Positions 6,975 to 63,635 of a stretch of DNA of 64,000 nt are shown here, one piece after another. Both the position numbers and the translations under genes were made by a program. The stretch's first letter is position 1; each line of letters opens with the position of its first letter. The stretch comes from an uncultured Acidiferrobacteraceae bacterium (lineage in GTDB: Bacteria > Pseudomonadota > Gammaproteobacteria > Acidiferrobacterales > Sulfurifustaceae): NCBI GenBank assembly GCA_964629975.1, contig CAZVUN010000001.1, positions 10,846-74,845 on the forward strand. Direction: 5' to 3'. The notes under the pieces were generated by a model. The model saw nothing but the letters and a program-made list of their open reading frames with translations. It was not told where the DNA came from and made no database searches.

Positions 6975-8363
6975 CTAGATGACCTTGGAATAGCGCTGGC
7001 CTTCCTTCTCGCGCAGGTAGCGGTCGAACACCATGCAGACGTTGCGGATCAGCAGTTTGCCGGCCGGCTGCACGCGGATCCACGGGCCATCCAGCTGCAC
7101 CAGCCCGTCGCGCTGCATGCCCTCGAGCTCGGCCAGCTCCGGGGCGAAGTAATCGGCGAAGCGTATACGGAAGACCTGCTCGACCGCGTCGCGGTTGAGC
7201 ACGAAGTGGCAGATGAGCTGCGTGATCACGGCGCGGCGCAGCCGGTCGTCGGCCGACAGCTCGATGCCGCGGAACACCGCCAGCTCCCCGGCGTCGATGC
7301 GCGCGTAGTATTCGTCGAGGGTGCGCACGTTCTGCGCGTAGCTGTCGGCCACCTGGCCGATCGCGGTGATCCCCAGACCCACGAGGTCGCAGTCGGCGTG
7401 CGTCGAGTAGCCCTGGAAGTTGCGATACAGCGTGCCCTCGCGCTGCGCCACCGCCAGCTCATCCTCCGGCTTGGCGAAGTGATCCATACCGATGTACACA
7501 TAACCCGCCCGGGTCAGCCGCTCGATGGTGAGTTGCAGTATGTCGAGCTTGGCCTGCGGCGGCGGCAGGTCGGCGGCATTGATGCGCCGCTGCGGCTTGA
7601 ACAGCTCGGGCAGGTGGGCGTAGTTGAACACCGACAGCCGGTCGGGCGCGGCGGCGATGATCTTGTCGAGCGTGCGCCCGAAGCTCTCCACGGTCTGAAA
7701 CGGCAGGCCGTAGATGAGGTCCATGTTGATGGACCGGAAGCCCAGGCGCCGCGCCTCGCTGAGCACGGCGAGGGTCTGCGCCTCGCCCTGCAGGCGGTTG
7801 ACCGCCTTTTGCACCTGCGGGTCGAAGTCCTGCACCCCCATCGACAGGCGGTTGAAGCCGATGTCGCGCAGCAGCTGCAACGTGCCCGGATGCACCTCGC
7901 GCGGGTCGACCTCGATGCCGTACTCGCCCTGGTCGTCGTCGCGCAGCCGGAAGTGCTCGCGCGTCTTCTGCATGAGCGCGCGCATCTCCTCGTGCGAGAT
8001 GAAGGTCGGCGTGCCGCCGCCCCAGTGCAGCTGCTCGACCACGCGCGCGTTGTCGAACAGTTCGGCCTGCATGGCGATCTCGCGGTGCAGGCGCTCGAGA
8101 TACGGCGCCGCGCGCGTGCGGTCCTTGGTCACGACCTTGTTGCAGCCGCAGTAGTAGCAGACCGTGTCGCAGAACGGCAGATGAAAATAGAGCGACAGCG
8201 CCTTGCGCGGCGTGGCGCAGTTGCTCTGCGCCGCACACGCGCGGTACTGCGCGGGGCCGAAACCGCTGTGGAACTGCACGGCCGTGGGATAGGACGTGTA
8301 GCGCGGTCCGGACTTGTCGTAGCGGCGCAGCAGCTGCGGGTCAAAGACGAGGTGTTGATCCAT
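6975..8363 (-). CDS. hemN: oxygen-independent coproporphyrinogen III oxidase
   Basis: 462 aa with radical SAM HLPFCDTVCYYCGC and a HemN-type N-terminus (YDKSGPRYTSYPTA). Confidence 0.95.
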   Translation of the reverse strand: MDQHLVFDPQLLRRYDKSGPRYTSYPTAVQFHSGFGPAQYRACAAQSNCATPRKALSLYFHLPFCDTVCYYCGCNKVVTKDRTRAAPYLERLHREIAMQAELFDNARVVEQLHWGGGTPTFISHEEMRALMQKTREHFRLRDDDQGEYGIEVDPREVHPGTLQLLRDIGFNRLSMGVQDFDPQVQKAVNRLQGEAQTLAVLSEARRLGFRSINMDLIYGLPFQTVESFGRTLDKIIAAAPDRLSVFNYAHLPELFKPQRRINAADLPPPQAKLDILQLTIERLTRAGYVYIGMDHFAKPEDELAVAQREGTLYRNFQGYSTHADCDLVGLGITAIGQVADSYAQNVRTLDEYYARIDAGELAVFRGIELSADDRLRRAVITQLICHFVLNRDAVEQVFRIRFADYFAPELAELEGMQRDGLVQLDGPWIRVQPAGKLLIRNVCMVFDRYLREKEGQRYSKVI

Positions 8364-8428: not shown

Positions 8429-8442
8429 TTGACCTCTATCAA
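8429..8442. promoter_or_regulatory. FNR box shared by divergent hemN and cytochrome c-DUF302 genes
   Basis: TTGACCTCTATCAA (one mismatch to TTGAT-N4-ATCAA). On the + strand a 22-nt gap leads to AAAAAT (8465-8470). On the - strand a 21-nt gap leads to GACAAT. Confidence 0.75.
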
Positions 8443-11584: not shown

Positions 11585-13051
11585 TTATAATCCGAGCTCG
11601 GCCCACAACTCATCGACACGCCGGCGGACCGCCTCGCTCATCCCGATCGGCCTGCCCCATGGGCGTGTCGTCTCGCCCGGCCATTTGTTGGTCGCATCCA
11701 GGCCGAGCTTGCCGCCGAGCGAGGGTGCGGGACTGGCGAAATCGAGATAATCGATTGGCGTGTTTTCCGCCACCAGCGTATCGCGCGCGGGATCCATGCG
11801 CGTGGTCATGGCCCACACCACCTCCTTCCAGTCGCGCACGTTGATGTCGTCGTCGGTGACGATCACAAACTTCGTGTACGTGAACTGGCGCAGGTACGAC
11901 CACACACCGAACATGATGCGCCGGGCGTGCCCCGGGTAGCGCTTCTTGATCGAGACGCAGGCGACGCGGTACGAGCAGCCCTCGGGCGGCAGATAGAAGT
12001 CCACGATCTCCGGAAACTGCTTCTGCAATATCGGGATGAACACCTCGTTCAGTGCCTGTGCCAGCACCGAGGGTTCGTCCCAGGGCGAGCGGCCCATGTA
12101 GCTCGAATGGTAGATCGGGGTGGTACGGTGGCTGATGCGCTCGACGGTGAAGACCGGGAACGTATCCTGCGCGTTGTAGTAGCCGGTGTGGTCGCCGAAC
12201 GGCCCTTCGAGCGCGGTCTCGCCCGGCTGGATATGGCCTTCGAGCACGATCTCGGCGCTCGCCGGCACCGACAGCGTGCGACTGCGGTCCGGCACCACCT
12301 CGCTGCGCGCACCACGCAGCAGACCCGCGAACGTGAATTCCGAAAGCGAGTCGGGGATCGGTGTCACCGCCGCCAGCAGCGTTGCCGGATCGGCGCCGAT
12401 CGCGACCACCACCGGGAACGGCTTGCCCGGGTTCGCCTCCTGATGCTCGCGGAAATCGATTGCGCCGCCGCGGTGGTGCAGCCAGCGCATGATGACCTTG
12501 TTGCGCGAGAGCACCTGCTGGCGGTAGATGCCGATGTTCTGGCGCGCCTTGTGCGGCCCCTTGGTGATGACAAGACCGAAGGTGATCAAACGCCCGGCGT
12601 CTTCGGGCCAGCACTGCTGGATCGGAAGCATCGACAGGTCCACGTCCGGCCCTTCGACGACGTGCGCGCGGCAGGGTGCGTGGCGAACCTCCTTGGGCGG
12701 CGCGTGCAGCACCTGCCTCCACTCCGGCAGCCTCTCGAACAGCTCGCTCAAGCCCCGCGGCAATTGCGGTTCCTTCAGGAACGCGAGCATGCGCCCGACC
12801 TCGCGCAGCTCCTCGACCGATTTGCGGCCGACGGCCCGCGCGATGCGCGCCGTGGTGCCGAACAGGTTCCCGAGCAGCGCAATGCGCGAGCCCTTCGGGT
12901 GCTCGAACAGCAACGCCGGGCCGCCGGCCTTGAGCGTACGCTGACAGATCTCGGTTACCTCGAGCACCGGATCGACCGGTACGCCGATGCGCTTGAGCCC
13001 GCCGTCGGCCTCCAGCGCCCCCAGAAAATCACGCAATGTCGCGTAGCTCAT
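11585..13051 (-). CDS. ubiD: 4-hydroxy-3-polyprenylbenzoate decarboxylase
   Basis: UbiD-family sequence throughout ([26 protein letters not shown]). ATG 13051 is preferred. The tool start at 13102 is a TTG inside the FNR box. Confidence 0.93.
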
Positions 13052-13088
13052 GGGTCGTACACGGTAGGCGGTCACGGCCGGCCGCCGC

Positions 13089-13102
13089 TTGATCAAAATC
13101 AA
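13089..13102. promoter_or_regulatory. perfect FNR box between divergent ubiD and ubiT
   Basis: TTGATCAAAATCAA. On the + strand a 21-nt gap leads to CATAAT (13124-13129), with the ubiT ATG at 13138. On the - strand a 22-nt gap leads to TACCGT, with the ubiD ATG at 13051. Confidence 0.85.
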
Positions 13103-13137: not shown

Positions 13138-13638
13138 ATGCCCCCTGCAATCCCCTTCGCCTTGGTAGCACCCCTGCGCCTGCCGCTCGCGCTTCTGCCC
13201 GATGCGTTACAGGCCAGGTTGTTCGCGCAGGTCGCGAACCATCTCCTGCGCGGCCAGCGGCTGGCGCGGCGCCTGCCGGCGCTCGATGGCAGATCGGTCG
13301 AGATCCATATCACCGATGCCGACGCGCACCTGCGCTTCGCCATCGAGGCCGGGCGCCTGGTCGCGAGCGGCGCGCCGCGCTGCGACGTGGTGATCCGCGG
13401 CACGCTCGCCGAGTTCTGGCAGCTGGCCACGCGCGCCGAGGATCCGGATACCCTGTTCTTCCACCGGCGACTCAGCATCGAAGGTGACACCGAGACCGGA
13501 CTGCACGTGAAGAACCTGCTCGATGCGCTCGACTATGACATCGAGGCCCACGTCCGGGCGGTGCTGGAGCAGACGCCGGCGCGCCTGCTCGCGCCACTGA
13601 TCACACCACTGCTCGCCGCACTGCGCGCCGGTCGTTAG
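13138..13638 (+). CDS. ubiT: SCP2-domain ubiquinone anaerobic biosynthesis accessory factor
   Basis: DPDTLFFHRRLSIEGDTETGLHVKNLLDAL closely parallels E. coli YhbT/UbiT as recalled (DPDTLFFQRRLVIEGDTELGLYVKNLMDAI). Confidence 0.85.
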   Translation: MPPAIPFALVAPLRLPLALLPDALQARLFAQVANHLLRGQRLARRLPALDGRSVEIHITDADAHLRFAIEAGRLVASGAPRCDVVIRGTLAEFWQLATRAEDPDTLFFHRRLSIEGDTETGLHVKNLLDALDYDIEAHVRAVLEQTPARLLAPLITPLLAALRAGR

Positions 13639-14531
13639 CCGCCGGCGCTGCCCCAGTTCATGCCCGCCTGCCCGAGCCAGTAGCCGTCGCAGCGCCCGGT
13701 CGGCATGTACGGCGCCAAACGGCTATCGGCATCCGCGACCGTGATCGCCCCGTCGGCGACGGCGCGAAACAGCTCGACAACCGCGAACGTTCCCTGCGAC
13801 TGCGGCGTGACACGCAACACCTCCACGCCGAGCGCCGCCAGGGCTTGCAGATGCCCGAGGAGGCTGTGCGTGCCGGCGGACTGCACCTGGATGCCATTCA
13901 GCACCAGGAACGGTTTGTCCTCCTGGGTCTTGAGCAGCATGCCGTCGGGATAGTCGGCGCAGCGAAAGGCGCAGTCGTCCTTGGACCGGTTGTGGGCGCG
14001 CGCCGTGAAGCAGCGCGCGGAGAACGCGAGCGGCAGGCGCCCAAAGGCAAAGACCTCGGTCTCAACCCCTTCCGGTCGCGTGGCCTGCAGGGCAGCGAGC
14101 GCCTCGCGCGACAGCTCGAGCGGCGGTACCCAGCGGCATGCGCCGCTGCCGGCAAGCACGGCGAGGCTCGCCGCGTTGTAGACGTTGAGATGCGGACCGG
14201 CGACGAAGCGCGCACGGCCGGCCAGCAGGTTGACCGCGCCCCAGTCATTGGCCTCCACCCGGAAGCGCCCGTTCTCGGCGATGCGCCGCAGTTGCGCGAG
14301 CTCCGATTCCGCCTCGAGCAGCGTGAGCGTCGACAGCACCACTTCCTTGCCGGCTGCGGCAAGCTGCTCGGCCAGCGCGATCCAGTCGCGCAGGCGCAGC
14401 GCGCGGCGCTTGGCGCACACCACCTCACCCAGATAGACGATGTCCACCGGGCTCGCCGCCGTGCGTGCGTAGAACTCGCGCACCGTCTCGCGCGTCCAGA
14501 AGTAGGGGATGGGTCCCAGTGATAACTTCAT
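13635..14531 (-). CDS. ubiV: U32-family ubiquinone anaerobic biosynthesis protein
   Basis: MKLSLGPIPYFWTRETVREFY... parallels the E. coli YhbV/UbiV N-terminus. ATG 14531 is preferred over the upstream TTG at 14546. Confidence 0.9.
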   Translation of the reverse strand: MKLSLGPIPYFWTRETVREFYARTAASPVDIVYLGEVVCAKRRALRLRDWIALAEQLAAAGKEVVLSTLTLLEAESELAQLRRIAENGRFRVEANDWGAVNLLAGRARFVAGPHLNVYNAASLAVLAGSGACRWVPPLELSREALAALQATRPEGVETEVFAFGRLPLAFSARCFTARAHNRSKDDCAFRCADYPDGMLLKTQEDKPFLVLNGIQVQSAGTHSLLGHLQALAALGVEVLRVTPQSQGTFAVVELFRAVADGAITVADADSRLAPYMPTGRCDGYWLGQAGMNWGSAGG

Positions 14532-14536
14532 CGTGG

Positions 14537-14558
14537 CAAGTGACAAGTACCAAGTGAC
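14537..14558 (-). repeat. direct repeat GTCACTTG-N6-GTCACTTG immediately upstream of the ubiV start
   Basis: + strand CAAGTGAC at 14537-14544 and 14551-14558 (period 14). The proximal copy occupies the place where an SD would be expected, and no purine-rich SD is present. Confidence 0.7.
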
Positions 14559-14609
14559 GAGTAATCGTGCGCCTGCGGCGCATTGTTTTGCCTCTTACAA
14601 ACCACTAAA

Positions 14610-14627
14610 CACTCAGCACTCAGCACT
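14610..14627. repeat. short tandem 7-mer (CACTCAG x2.6) in the ubiU-ubiV spacer
   Basis: CACTCAGCACTCAGCACT read directly. It lies in a 103-nt spacer of visibly lower GC. Confidence 0.7.
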
Positions 14628-14634
14628 GTCGTCA

Positions 14635-15666
14635 CTATTGCCATGGCCGGTGATAGGCCCCGAGGGTGTGGCAGCGGCCCTCCGCGACCTTGTCGAGCGC
14701 GCGCTGCCATTCGGGGCGGGGCACGAAGTGCGCCGGGTCGCGCCGGCAGGCATCGAGCGCCGCACGCAGCACCTGCGTGACCTGCGCGACATAGGCCGGG
14801 CTGCGCTGCCGGCCCTCGACCTTGATCGCCGCGACCCCGGCAGCGAACAGCTGTGGCAGGATCTCCAGGACGTTGAGCGCGGTCGGTTCCTCCAGCGCAT
14901 AGAACGGCTGGCCGGCCACAGGGTCGGGCCCATCGCTCGAACACCGCTCCACGGCGAACCGGCCCTTGCACAATGTGGGGTAGCCGGCCGACTGGTCGGG
15001 GGCGTAAATGTCGATCAGCACGCCGTTCAGGCGCGAACGCCGTCCACCGCCCGGCGATTCCTCCCAGCGCACACTCTTCGCCGGCGAGCACACGCCGCTG
15101 GTGTTGGGCGACTCGCCGGTGACATAGGACGACAACTGGCAGCGCCCCTCCACCATGATGCACAGGCTGCCGAAGCCGAATACCTCGACCTCCACGTTCA
15201 CGCGGTGCACGATCGCCGCCACCTGCGCAGCCGACAGCACGCGCGGCAGCACCACGCGCCGGATGCGAAAGCGCCGCGCATAGAAGTCGATAGCCTCCGG
15301 ATTCGTGGCCGAGCCCTGCACCGAAAGGTGCAGGCGCAGCTGCGGATGGCGGGCGGCCGCGTAACTGAGCAGCCCGACGTCCGCCATGATCAGCGCATCG
15401 ACCCCAAGCGCGGCCGCCAGGTCTACGGCCGCACACCAGCGGGCCCACTGGTCCGGGCGCGGGAAGGTGTTGAGCGCGACGAACACGCGCCGGCCGGCCG
15501 CGTGCGCGTAGGCGAGCGCCTCACGTGCCTCGTCGGCGTCGAAATTGAGGCCGGGAAAATTCCGCGCGTTGGTGCCGTCGCGAAAACCGATGTAGACGGC
15601 ATCGGCGCCACAATCGATTGCGGCCTTCAATGCCGGCAGGCTCCCGGCGGGACAAATGAGCTCCAT
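14635..15666 (-). CDS. ubiU: U32-family ubiquinone anaerobic biosynthesis protein
   Basis: MELICPAGSLPALKAAIDCGADAVYIGFRDGTNARNFPGLNF parallels the E. coli YhbU/UbiU N-terminus nearly residue for residue. Confidence 0.92.
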   Translation of the reverse strand: MELICPAGSLPALKAAIDCGADAVYIGFRDGTNARNFPGLNFDADEAREALAYAHAAGRRVFVALNTFPRPDQWARWCAAVDLAAALGVDALIMADVGLLSYAAARHPQLRLHLSVQGSATNPEAIDFYARRFRIRRVVLPRVLSAAQVAAIVHRVNVEVEVFGFGSLCIMVEGRCQLSSYVTGESPNTSGVCSPAKSVRWEESPGGGRRSRLNGVLIDIYAPDQSAGYPTLCKGRFAVERCSSDGPDPVAGQPFYALEEPTALNVLEILPQLFAAGVAAIKVEGRQRSPAYVAQVTQVLRAALDACRRDPAHFVPRPEWQRALDKVAEGRCHTLGAYHRPWQ

Positions 15667-15687
15667 CGATGAACGCCAGAATCAGCC

Positions 15688-15709
15688 GTAAGTGATGGGT
15701 AGTAAGTGA
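15688..15709 (-). repeat. direct repeat TCACTTAC-N6-TCACTTAC upstream of the ubiU start
   Basis: + strand GTAAGTGA at 15688-15695 and 15702-15709 (period 14). It shares the AAGTGA core with the ubiV-proximal repeat. Confidence 0.7.
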
Positions 15710-15806
15710 GGGATGGGTTCGTATAAGCGGCTTGACCTGTCGGCGCGGCCACGCATTTCTGCCGCGGACTCCGGGACCTAGAACCTGGAGCGCATCATTG
15801 CCTTCC

Positions 15807-16418
15807 CTAACCTACCTTGCCGAGCACGCGATGGCGGAAGTCGACGCCGAGCCGTGCCGCGAGCGCAGCGCACGCCGCCACGTCCACACCTTCGAGACCG
15901 TCGACGGCGCTCACGCTCACGTGCGGCACGAACTCGCGTGCCCGCGTGATGAATTCGAGCACCGCCTCGTAGGCGCCGGCCTCCTTGGGCCGGCAGTGGC
16001 GCGCGTAGGTGGTCGCGTCCTGCGCGTTGAGCGACACCGACAGGCTGTCGACGATGTCCTCCAGGTCTGGCGTCACGTCACGCCCGTGCACCCGATTGGC
16101 GAGACCGTCGGTGTTGATGCGGATCGCCTTGGCGCCGAGCTTGCGCAGGCGGGTGGCCACCTCGAGCACGTCGTAGAGGCGCAGCGTCGGCTCGCCCAGC
16201 CCGCAAAACACCACCTCCCGATACTGCCCGGGGTTCTCGGCTGCCGCCACCATCTCCTCGACCGTCGGTTCGCGCGGCAGGCGCAGGGCGTAGTCCTGCA
16301 CCGTCCAGCAGCCGTTGAACTTGGGGCAGAAGCCGCAACGCAGCGTGCAGCGGTTGGTAACGTTGAGGTACCGACCACCACGCAGGGTGTAACCGAAAAC
16401 GGGTGTGTGCATGCCCAT
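15807..16418 (-). CDS. small radical SAM protein (resembles the family annotated as TatD-associated radical SAM)
   Basis: CTLRCGFC (Cx3Cx2C) near the N-terminus, a GLGEP glycine-rich motif, about 200 aa. Start is ambiguous: ATG 16433 lies inside the predicted -10 hexamer, so 16418 or 16412 is more likely. Confidence 0.8.
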   Translation of the reverse strand: MGMHTPVFGYTLRGGRYLNVTNRCTLRCGFCPKFNGCWTVQDYALRLPREPTVEEMVAAAENPGQYREVVFCGLGEPTLRLYDVLEVATRLRKLGAKAIRINTDGLANRVHGRDVTPDLEDIVDSLSVSLNAQDATTYARHCRPKEAGAYEAVLEFITRAREFVPHVSVSAVDGLEGVDVAACAALAARLGVDFRHRVLGKVG

Positions 16419-16457
16419 GACGGTGCCGCACATTACCGGCCGCGCGCGCCGCTTGCA

Positions 16458-16471
16458 TTGATCTCAATCAA
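16458..16471. promoter_or_regulatory. perfect FNR box, class II geometry, upstream of the radical SAM gene
   Basis: TTGATCTCAATCAA. On the - strand exactly 22 nt separate it from TAATGT (16435-16430). The predicted TSS is about 5 nt before ATG 16418. Confidence 0.85.
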
Positions 16472-16564: not shown

Positions 16565-16972
16565 CTAACCCGGTTTGTCCTTGAGCAGGTCCTTGAGATT
16601 GGCGAACGGCTGGTTCACGGCCGCGACCCGACTGGCCGCGGCGGGCAGCGGATCCCAGCCGCGCACCAGGTGGGCGAACTTCTGATGCTCGGCATCGTGG
16701 CAGTACAGGCACAGGTTCTCCCAGTTGCTGCCGTCCGCCGGGTTGTTGTCGTGGTTGTGGTCCTTGTGGTGCACCGTGAGCTCATGCAGGTTTTCGCGCG
16801 TGAAGCTGCGGCCGCAGCGCCCGCACACCCATGGGTGCAGCTTGAGCGACTGCTCGCGATAGCCCTGCATGCGCGTGTCGCGATCCTTCACGGCGCGCGC
16901 CACGACCGCGTCCAGCCTGGCGGTATTGATTGGGTCACCCGGGCGCCGCGGGCCGCTGCGCTTTGCTGTCAT
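16565..16972 (-). CDS. yajD: HNH endonuclease family protein YajD
   Basis: HPWVCGRCGRSF...ELTVHHKDHNHDNNPADGSNWENLCLYCHDAEH parallels E. coli YajD as recalled. Confidence 0.85.
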   Translation of the reverse strand: MTAKRSGPRRPGDPINTARLDAVVARAVKDRDTRMQGYREQSLKLHPWVCGRCGRSFTRENLHELTVHHKDHNHDNNPADGSNWENLCLYCHDAEHQKFAHLVRGWDPLPAAASRVAAVNQPFANLKDLLKDKPG

Positions 16973-23944: not shown

Positions 23945-23958
23945 TTGACGCCCATCAA
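23945..23958. promoter_or_regulatory. FNR box upstream of hsp20
   Basis: TTGACGCCCATCAA (one mismatch). A 21-nt gap leads to TACCAT (23980-23985). The predicted leader to ATG 24061 is about 70 nt. Confidence 0.6.
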
Positions 23959-24060
23959 AGCGCGCCGTTGGCGCGCTGATACCATGTTCGCTGTCCGGTG
24001 AGTACGCGCCGGGCCGGAAGTGCATCGCCCAGCGCGTCATTCGGACAAAGGAGGTGTCCC

Positions 24061-24525
24061 ATGACGACCCAAGTCCCCGTAAAACGTCCGCCTGAGGGCC
24101 GCGGCGAATTGATGCGTCCGTTCGATCTGTTCGAGCAGATGGAACAGTGGATGGAACGCATGATGCCGTGGCGTCCGCTGCTGCCGGAGTCGCTCGCCTG
24201 GACCGGCGCGATGCCGCAGATTGACATCGTGGACCGGGAGGCGGAGCTGCTCGTGCGTTGCGCAGTACCGGGCTTCACCAAGGACGACATCGAGGTCACC
24301 ACCACCAACGACGCCGTGACCATCCGCGGCACCCGTCGCGCCGAGACCGAGGAGAAGGGCGAGTACTATCGCAAGGAGATCCGTCGCGAGGACTTCCTGC
24401 GCACGGTCCACCTGCCGGCACTCGTCGACGACACCAAGGCCAAGGCGAGCTACAAGGACGGCGTGCTCGAGCTGGTGCTGCCCAAGGTCGAAACGGCCCG
24501 CAAGCACACCCTCAAGATCGAGTAA
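24061..24525 (+). CDS. Hsp20/alpha-crystallin family small heat-shock protein
   Basis: Alpha-crystallin domain (IDIVDREAELLVRCAVPGFTKDDIEV...ASYKDGVLELVLPK). AAGGAGG precedes ATG 24061. Confidence 0.9.
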   Translation: MTTQVPVKRPPEGRGELMRPFDLFEQMEQWMERMMPWRPLLPESLAWTGAMPQIDIVDREAELLVRCAVPGFTKDDIEVTTTNDAVTIRGTRRAETEEKGEYYRKEIRREDFLRTVHLPALVDDTKAKASYKDGVLELVLPKVETARKHTLKIE

Positions 24526-35622: not shown

Positions 35623-35636
35623 TTGATCTTCATCAA
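35623..35636. promoter_or_regulatory. perfect FNR box between the OYE reductase and DUF2845 genes
   Basis: TTGATCTTCATCAA. On the - strand a 22-nt gap leads to the weak hexamer CACAGT. No convincing -10 lies at class II distance on the + strand. Confidence 0.7.
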
Positions 35637-38522: not shown

Positions 38523-38536
38523 TTGATTTCGGTCAA
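38523..38536. promoter_or_regulatory. near-consensus FNR box upstream of trpB2-SDR
   Basis: TTGATTTCGGTCAA (one mismatch). On the - strand exactly 22 nt lead to TATTTA (38500-38495). Confidence 0.5.
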
Positions 38537-63527: not shown

Positions 63528-63635
63528 GCGCGCGGCCGGACGGCCTTCGGCCGGCCCCGGAGGGCGCGCTTGATGCCGGTCAATGCGCGCCGCCGGCGAT
63601 GCGCGCAGGGTGGCGGGGACTGCCGGAGCCCACCC

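Follow-up and report, generated by a model that had tools for sequence, protein, structure and literature searches.

A TatD-associated radical SAM gene at the head of a candidate FNR-type operon with ubiU and ubiV in an Acidiferrobacteraceae bacterium

Does a radical S-adenosylmethionine (SAM) gene placed directly ahead of ubiU and ubiV take part in O2-independent ubiquinone synthesis, or does it only share a promoter with these genes? The question is raised by a 64,000-nucleotide (nt) stretch of DNA from an uncultured Acidiferrobacteraceae bacterium (hereafter the window, at its full length), in which a small radical SAM gene, ubiU and ubiV follow one another on the minus strand. The explanation that we favor, with modest confidence, is that the radical SAM protein is a split-off partner module of the hydrolase YcfH, which facultative anaerobes placed under O2-sensing control and co-transcribe with anaerobic substitute enzymes. 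The argument turns on the following elements of the window:

16458..16471 (centre 16464.5), minus strand: perfect FNR/ANR-type box TTGATTGAGATCAA in the coding-strand reading (TTGATCTCAATCAA forward), found by pattern search with 0 mismatches
16430..16435, minus strand: -10-like hexamer TAATGT, exactly 22 nt past the box, read from the sequence
15807..16433, minus strand: radical SAM open reading frame with CTLRCGFC (Cx3Cx2C); with the likely real start at ATG 16418 it becomes 15807..16418, 203 amino acids (aa), the first cistron
15667..15806, minus strand: spacer between the radical SAM gene and ubiU, 140 nt
14635..15666, minus strand: ubiU, U32-family subunit of the O2-independent ubiquinone hydroxylase (NF047963, 529.9 bits, cut-off 440)
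14532..14634, minus strand: spacer between ubiU and ubiV, 103 nt, with a weak hairpin only and no proper T-tract
13635..14531 (alternative 14546), minus strand: ubiV (NF047965, 405.3 bits, cut-off 275)

A preliminary description of the window had given the minus-strand order radical SAM gene (Cx3Cx2C), ubiU, ubiV, and both the open reading frames and the NCBIfam profiles agreed with it, as did the lengths of the gaps at 15667-15806 and 14532-14634 (140 and 103 nt). All four Cys were present in UbiU, in a CX6CX16C... spacing. UbiU, UbiV and the UbiT encoded nearby all scored above their equivalog cut-offs, and ubiV followed ubiU after 103 nt (<500 bp), as in an O2-independent ubiquinone locus.

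The perfect box, the exact 22-nt distance and the TAATGT reported earlier ahead of the radical SAM gene were recovered by pattern search and from the sequence. Together, the TTGAT-N4-ATCAA box and the -10 hexamer, with the box centre near -41.5, have the geometry of a class II FNR promoter, from which a transcription start near 16423-16424 is predicted. The protein almost certainly begins at ATG 16418 and has 203 aa, because ATG 16433 falls inside the -10 hexamer and the 16418 start is conserved in the closest relative (locus L001), which retains the box as well as the CCGTCATGG start and has a TAAGGT hexamer at the same 22-nt distance. With this start, the predicted transcript would have a leader of only ~5 nt and would be almost leaderless. 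In locus L002, whose protein is the sister to that of the window, an identical box was kept and no ubiUV genes were found within 10 kb. Neither internal gap of the window (140 nt and 103 nt) contained a sigma-70-like promoter in a consensus scan, an FNR box in the pattern search or a proper terminator, in line with the earlier statement that the sole recognizable promoter of the set lies upstream of the radical SAM gene. A search of the same two gaps for a riboswitch or attenuator gave no Rfam match and no unusual stability (fold z = +0.59 for the spacer before ubiU).

To place this arrangement among its relatives, we used a scan of one genome per species, which gave 287 relatives of the radical SAM protein. 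The best 80 were kept and read with 10 kb flanks; all counts anchored on the radical SAM gene rest on these 80 loci, in which start codons are predicted and several taxon labels of metagenome-assembled genomes (MAGs) are doubtful. The named sources were Acidiferrobacterales, Sulfuricaulis, Sulfurifustaceae, Ca. Muproteobacteria, Ectothiorhodospira, Thioalkalivibrio, Thiohalomonas and Oxalobacter. The order radical SAM gene-(yhcC/mnmL)-ubiU-ubiV was present in 49 of the 80 loci, so that dozens of sulfur-oxidizing Gammaproteobacteria share it, and the genes downstream of the radical SAM gene were distributed as follows:

ubiU-ubiV directly: 25 loci
a TIGR01212 YhcC/MnmL-type gene, then ubiU-ubiV: 24 loci
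hemN: 6 loci
nrdD, with its own nrdG: 8 loci
scattered other genes or contig ends: the remainder of the 80

The locus was also approached from the other side, through the 80 closest metagenome UbiU loci, 67 of which had enough upstream sequence. Upstream of ubiU, these contained:

the radical SAM gene in the operon: 42 of 67 (27 direct, 15 via mnmL)
mnmL-ubiUV without the radical SAM gene: 16 of 67
neither the radical SAM gene nor mnmL: 9 of 67

The conserved neighborhood with ubiUV, on which the preliminary description had made its proposal depend, was therefore found with either anchor (49/80 genome loci and 42/67 UbiU-anchored metagenome loci). Across orders, the radical SAM proteins were 57-80% identical. 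In a quick neighbor-joining tree, calculated without support values, the stand-alone proteins formed one clade relative to the TatD-fused representatives described below; the ubiUV context extended across this entire clade, with the hemN, nrdD and other contexts interleaved in it.

The spacing of the genes and the position of the boxes in the relatives were examined in the same loci. The gap between the radical SAM gene and ubiU had a median of 32 nt (n=25), and that between the radical SAM gene and mnmL a median of 2 nt (n=25, range -4 to 24). An FNR-like box, TTGAT-N4-(A/G)TCAA, was found within 250 nt upstream of the predicted radical SAM start in 34 of 78 loci, where ~1 was expected from a background of 0.013 per 250 nt, and the box centres lay mostly 41-66 nt ahead of the start codon. 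No such box was found in the 53 gaps between the radical SAM gene and the next gene (0/53). These two counts indicate that the O2-responsive promoter serving ubiUV stands before the radical SAM gene in these lineages. As judged from sequence comparison, the reading of radical SAM gene, ubiU and ubiV as one FNR-type operon is supported.

The radical SAM protein matched NCBIfam TIGR04038 (TatD family nuclease-associated radical SAM protein) with 238.8 bits against a cut-off of 129.7, over profile positions 3-190 of 192, so the resemblance to a TatD-associated family noticed earlier proved to lie far above threshold. Pfam PF04055 was matched with 51 bits (cut-off 29.5), and C24, C28 and C31 (CX3CX2C) as well as CGLGEP (CGxGEP) were invariant, which places the protein in the radical SAM superfamily. 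With TIGR04038 it shares a full-length match, CX3CX2C, the invariant VFCGxGEP and NTDG/SxSLNA motifs and a length of ~200 aa. In contrast to what the family name implies, the protein of the window is neither fused nor adjacent to TatD; its gene heads ubiUV and is preceded by an FNR box, and it belongs to a monophyletic, stand-alone proteobacterial clade. Cys72 (in VFCGxGEP) was the only non-cluster Cys invariant across stand-alone and TatD-fused members, and the fusions do not all keep the CRP and AAC cysteines; this gives no support for a second Fe-S cluster, and we set aside an auxiliary one.

The AlphaFold2 model of the protein (pLDDT 83.6, pTM 0.82) revealed a minimal partial-barrel radical SAM core. 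A Foldseek search of the PDB with this model gave only generic radical SAM cores (ThiH, PFL-activase, NosL, MoaA, SkfB and others; TM ~0.6, 13-20% identity) and no specific functional lead; the best size-matched structural neighbor was PFL-AE (3c8f; TM 0.65/0.55, 18% identity). A sequence search of the PDB returned only RlmN, at an uninformative E of ~3e-3. The minimal partial-barrel core and the position of some orthologues upstream of nrdD are shared with the glycyl-radical-enzyme activases PflA and NrdG, but the protein matched no activase family and was only 18% identical to PFL-AE. A role as the activase of NrdD was rejected, as none of the 12 NCBIfam matches at E<=1e-3 was an activase model and the nrdD-linked loci carry their own, separate NrdG (TIGR02495). 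MoaA (GTP 3',8-cyclase) was rejected as well, with 35.6 bits against a cut-off of 284 and a protein of 203 aa that has no C-terminal second-cluster domain. TIGR01212 was not matched among the NCBIfam profiles.

An exhaustive search of 50%-identity representatives gave 1195 relatives of the radical SAM protein. Among the 150 best representatives, 72 were >=420 aa long with the radical SAM part at the C-terminus, and all 7 tested of that length had an N-terminal PF01026 TatD domain. A profile of the fusion retrieved at least 7997 proteins, with Desulfuromonadales, Desulfuromusa, other Deltaproteobacteria and Nitrospirae as the named sources. Because only Alpha-, Beta- and Gammaproteobacteria have ubiquinone (Pelosi 2019, PMC6747719), the Desulfuromonadales and Nitrospirae sources do not belong to the ubiquinone-making classes. 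Outside the stand-alone clade, the nearest relatives were ~50% identical to it and fused to a YcfH-type TatD hydrolase, mostly in anaerobes. Two of the three fusions that were looked up had the context tmk-holB-PSP1-metG-(TatD-radical SAM), and the third sat elsewhere. In the closest fused representative (P0123, from a MAG), which was 54% identical to the radical SAM protein of the window, the order was fabG-acpP-fabF-yceG-tmk-holB-PSP1-(fusion); this fusion occupies the position of ycfH in E. coli K-12, which has the fab-mltG-tmk-holB order in common with the MAG, and over its full length its TatD domain shared 45% identity with YcfH. The domain fusion argues for a housekeeping YcfH-type hydrolase, and not a ubiquinone enzyme, as the ancestral partner of the radical SAM module. 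TatD-family enzymes have been described as 3'-5' exonucleases and apurinic/apyrimidinic endonucleases in DNA repair (PMC4176340, PMC10085689), and the TatD link thus suggests a nucleic-acid-type substrate. The earlier statement that tatD is missing here was upheld by tblastn with four TatD domains, which found no TatD-like coding sequence anywhere in the 64 kb window and no TatD/YcfH gene in the 80 related loci with their 10 kb flanks.

A second radical SAM gene serves as an internal control for what linkage to ubiUV can mean. The gene found between the TIGR04038 gene and ubiU in sister lineages scored 354-378 bits against TIGR01212 (cut-off 180), which identifies it as a member of the YhcC/MnmL family. 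It lay inside the operon in 24 of the 49 syntenic genome loci and upstream of ubiUV without the TIGR04038 gene in 16 of 67 UbiU-anchored loci, and showed the same tight linkage to ubiUV as the TIGR04038 gene; no TIGR01212 gene occurs in the 64 kb window. In E. coli, YhcC is activated by FNR and takes the place of the MnmC oxidase in anaerobic tRNA modification (mnm5s2U) (2026 preprint, PMC13228596). Since YhcC/MnmL shares the operon and yet acts on tRNA, operon membership does not imply a ubiquinone function. The two proteins are alike in being radical SAM proteins with FNR-type control, encoded upstream of ubiU in sister lineages, but YhcC/MnmL is a separate family with an Elp3-like fold and ~315 aa. 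YhcC/MnmL may thereby serve as a model for the radical SAM protein of the window, as a possible O2-independent substitute. The common theme of the recurrent neighbors UbiUV, YhcC, HemN and NrdDG is that they are O2-independent substitutes for O2-dependent enzymes, behind FNR-type promoters.

Some further details of the TIGR01212 gene were observed. It was located directly upstream of ubiU in L028, L018, L038, L073, L054 and 20 other loci, and in the metagenome loci L113, L133, L139, L143, L146, L151, L157 and L162. This arrangement was found in Ectothiorhodospira-, Thioalkalivibrio- and Thiohalomonas-like genomes, whether the TIGR04038 gene was present or not. The gene was often translationally coupled to the TIGR04038 gene, and an FNR-like box was present ~100 nt upstream when the TIGR01212 gene came first.

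We propose that the radical SAM protein, a member of the TatD(YcfH)-associated family, is a minimal [4Fe-4S]/SAM radical enzyme encoded by the promoter-proximal cistron of an FNR/ANR-activated operon with ubiU and ubiV. In strict anaerobes and at least one MAG, the same module forms the C-terminal domain of a housekeeping YcfH-type TatD hydrolase; in the gammaproteobacterial clade, it would have been split from YcfH and put behind an O2-sensing promoter, which would confine this O2-labile enzyme to anoxia. There it would share its promoter with UbiUV and often with YhcC/MnmL, and in other lineages HemN or NrdDG adjoins. The protein would still work with YcfH, probably on a nucleic-acid-type substrate, and its link with ubiUV would be regulatory rather than catalytic. 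Several points weigh against this proposal. The support for a partnership with YcfH comes from fusions in other lineages, and neither the window nor the 80 loci have a TatD/YcfH gene. The linkage to ubiUV (~61-64%) is far commoner than that to any other anaerobic gene and is clade-wide, which also fits a functional tie. Additionally, Oxalobacter, in which the radical SAM gene lies beside nrdDG, still has no ubiquinone hydroxylases other than UbiTUV (ISME J 2024 Table S1, PMC11707229); thus, as far as loci rather than whole genomes can tell, no genome with the radical SAM gene but without UbiUV was found.

The surroundings of the operon bear on the alternatives, and their features are the following:

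13138..13638, plus strand: ubiT, SCP2-domain accessory factor, convergent with ubiV (NF047962, 133.6 bits, cut-off 46.9)
13089..13102: perfect FNR palindrome TTGATCAAAATCAA separating the divergent ubiT and ubiD, found by pattern search
11585..13053, minus strand: ubiD, 4-hydroxy-3-polyprenylbenzoate decarboxylase, likely start ATG 13053 (NF008175, 798.9 bits, cut-off 788)
6978..8363, minus strand: hemN, O2-independent coproporphyrinogen III oxidase, in the same anaerobic neighborhood
16565..16972, minus strand: yajD-family HNH gene, a conserved upstream neighbor outside the FNR-driven unit

The perfect FNR box that the preliminary description had assigned to ubiT was located at 13089-13102, 36 nt before the ubiT ATG. 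On the ubiT side, the box is followed by 22 nt and then ATAATG, with the ATG at 13138, ~42.5 nt from the box centre; on the ubiD side, it is followed by 22 nt and then TACCGT, with the ubiD ATG ~44.5 nt away. This symmetry suggests a bidirectional FNR promoter from which two nearly leaderless mRNAs (ubiT and ubiD) would arise. The stop codons of ubiV on the minus strand and ubiT on the plus strand overlap by 4 nt (13635-13638), which leaves no room for a terminator between them. Across the window, 8 FNR boxes with <=1 mismatch were counted where 0.27 were expected, and 0 of 100 shuffles reached 8; a dense FNR/ANR regulon over this stretch is suggested. Besides the boxes already described, FNR-type boxes were found at 8429-8442, 23945-23958, 35623-35636, 38523-38536 and 63570-63583. 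That at 8429-8442 is a one-mismatch FNR-like box and precedes hemN (6978-8363) by 66 nt; another precedes a small heat-shock gene of the Hsp20 family (23998-24525) by ~40 nt, and the perfect box at 35623-35636 is flanked by open reading frames without an NCBIfam match. Within the operon, AT-rich direct repeats were observed on the minus strand just before the ubiU start (15688-15709, TCACTTAC-N6-TCACTTAC) and just before the ubiV start (14536-14557, TCACTTGG-N6-TCACTTGC). These repeats were not kept in the closest relative, L001, and both starts are without a recognizable Shine-Dalgarno sequence.

The readings that compete with a split-off YcfH-partner module differ in how they treat this evidence. 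That the radical SAM protein is a dedicated O2-independent ubiquinone accessory, serving in radical initiation, in Fe-S or cofactor maturation for UbiU/UbiV or in an extra ring modification, appears unlikely to us. It would account for the gene being the first cistron of a conserved operon (49/80 genome and 42/67 UbiU-anchored loci), for the sole FNR box of ubiUV standing upstream of it, for its very strong conservation (57-80% identity across orders) and for the presence of UbiTUV in lineages with a relocated gene, such as Oxalobacter; it would also find room in the chemistry of UbiUV, as we know of no established mechanism for the O2-independent ring hydroxylation by UbiU/UbiV. Nevertheless, the orthologues leave ubiUV for hemN or nrdDG contexts, and 25 of the 67 close UbiU loci are without the radical SAM gene in the operon. 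The tRNA enzyme YhcC/MnmL is equally tightly linked, which means that linkage is not diagnostic, and the YcfH fusions that are most closely related to the protein have their named sources outside the ubiquinone-making classes. Moreover, neither the E. coli and P. aeruginosa work on UbiTUV (PMC6747719) nor the 1566-locus survey (PMC11707229) mentions a radical SAM partner. The preliminary description had argued from co-regulated placement to such an anaerobic UbiU/UbiV accessory; the shared FNR-type operon and the conserved synteny in that argument stood, but the UbiU/UbiV-specific function was undercut by the hemN/nrdDG contexts, YhcC and the YcfH fusions. It is likewise doubtful that the stand-alone TIGR04038 protein was recruited from the YcfH-linked module as a lineage-specific fourth component of the ubiquinone pathway, be it an initiator or maturase of UbiU/UbiV or a prenyl-FMN activator of UbiD.

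We consider it very improbable that the protein is an anaerobic helper of UbiD responsible for the O2-independent oxidative maturation of prenylated FMN, a maturation that uses O2 in vitro. Such a helper would explain the clustering with ubiD and ubiUV, since ubiD lies in the same island behind the common ubiT/ubiD FNR box and is kept next to ubiT in many loci; in L051, the radical SAM gene is followed directly by ubiD, and in L044, ubiD is upstream of it. Direct adjacency to ubiD was, however, restricted to 1-2 loci, the linkage is explained by a conserved ubiUV-ubiT-ubiD block, and the fused relatives are found in housekeeping contexts with no link to UbiD. To our knowledge, E. coli also matures UbiD anaerobically without needing any TIGR04038 member. 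Mere adjacency, in which the radical SAM gene is transcribed alone and ubiUV from an unrecognized promoter in the 140-nt gap with no operon at all, has a similarly slim chance. The gap in the window does exceed the median of 32 nt, the promoter scan covers the sigma-70 consensus only, and L002 illustrates that the gene can be monocistronic behind the same box; but the 140-nt gap has no promoter-like site, terminator, FNR box, Rfam match or stable structure, and the gaps of other genomes go down to 6-32 nt or, with mnmL, become overlaps of -4 to 8 nt. An FNR-like box occurs in 0/53 internal gaps, though most other Pseudomonadota have such a site ahead of ubiU (PMC11707229).

Comparison with the published ubiUV/ubiT loci (PMC6747719; PMC11707229) revealed the same basic architecture, with ubiV directly after ubiU, ubiT co-localized on the other strand and FNR-type boxes. 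The differences are that the FNR site for ubiUV in the window lies ~800 nt upstream, ahead of an extra radical SAM cistron, and that the clade often adds one or two radical SAM genes (TIGR04038, TIGR01212) 5' of ubiU. The work that defined UbiTUV in E. coli and examined it in P. aeruginosa does not mention a radical SAM partner (Pelosi 2019, PMC6747719), and the survey of 1566 ubiTUV loci, which scanned 450 nt upstream of ubiU and ubiT and thus would not reach a site at ~800 nt, mentions no radical SAM gene (PMC11707229); the earlier remark that the described set consists of UbiT, UbiU and UbiV without a radical SAM protein was consistent with both. Our literature search found no paper mentioning TIGR04038 and none linking this family to ubiUV, and a radical SAM gene was tied to ubiUV in no paper beyond a general review. 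The TIGR04038 protein family and the ubiTUV/FNR system are already known; the conserved operon of radical SAM gene, optional yhcC and ubiUV, together with the split of YcfH and radical SAM module in this clade, is apparently unreported.

A few of the related loci had peculiarities of their own. According to their labels, the contigs of L003, L005, L067 and L076 come from MAGs of Bacteroidota, Ca. Methylomirabilis, Oscillospiraceae and Acidobacteriota. The block of radical SAM gene and ubiUV in L003 and L005 is that of the Sulfuricaulis/Muproteobacteria loci, and L067 has an Oxalobacter-type pair of radical SAM gene and nrdD; for these three, mis-binning is likely and horizontal transfer less likely. 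L076 has neither block, and its radical SAM protein groups with the gammaproteobacterial clade. In the Ectothiorhodospira loci L028, L032, L037 and L040, a second UbiU-like U32 paralogue, which could be a TrhP/RlhA-type RNA hydroxylase, lies ~2-4 kb upstream of the radical SAM gene on the opposite strand. In two Thiohalomonadaceae-like loci (L074:10740-12971 and L079:7822-10074), the radical SAM gene is followed by a CopA/CcoI-type copper P-type ATPase, a gene class often tied to micro-oxic respiration.

For the study of O2-independent ubiquinone synthesis, a radical SAM gene heading a ubiUV operon is an obvious and cheap candidate for a test of O2-independent hydroxylation, and a survey of FNR sites that stops 450 nt ahead of ubiU will overlook the true promoter of these lineages. 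The TIGR04038 family is large (at least 7997 fused proteins and 1195 cluster representatives) and has no assigned function. Anoxia provides the first physiological handle on it, as the radical SAM gene is found here split from YcfH, behind FNR boxes and beside UbiUV, YhcC/MnmL, HemN and NrdDG. These findings suggest that the radical SAM protein may be one more O2-independent replacement for a reaction that needs O2, and they hint that oxygen also bears on the function of the enigmatic housekeeping hydrolase YcfH.

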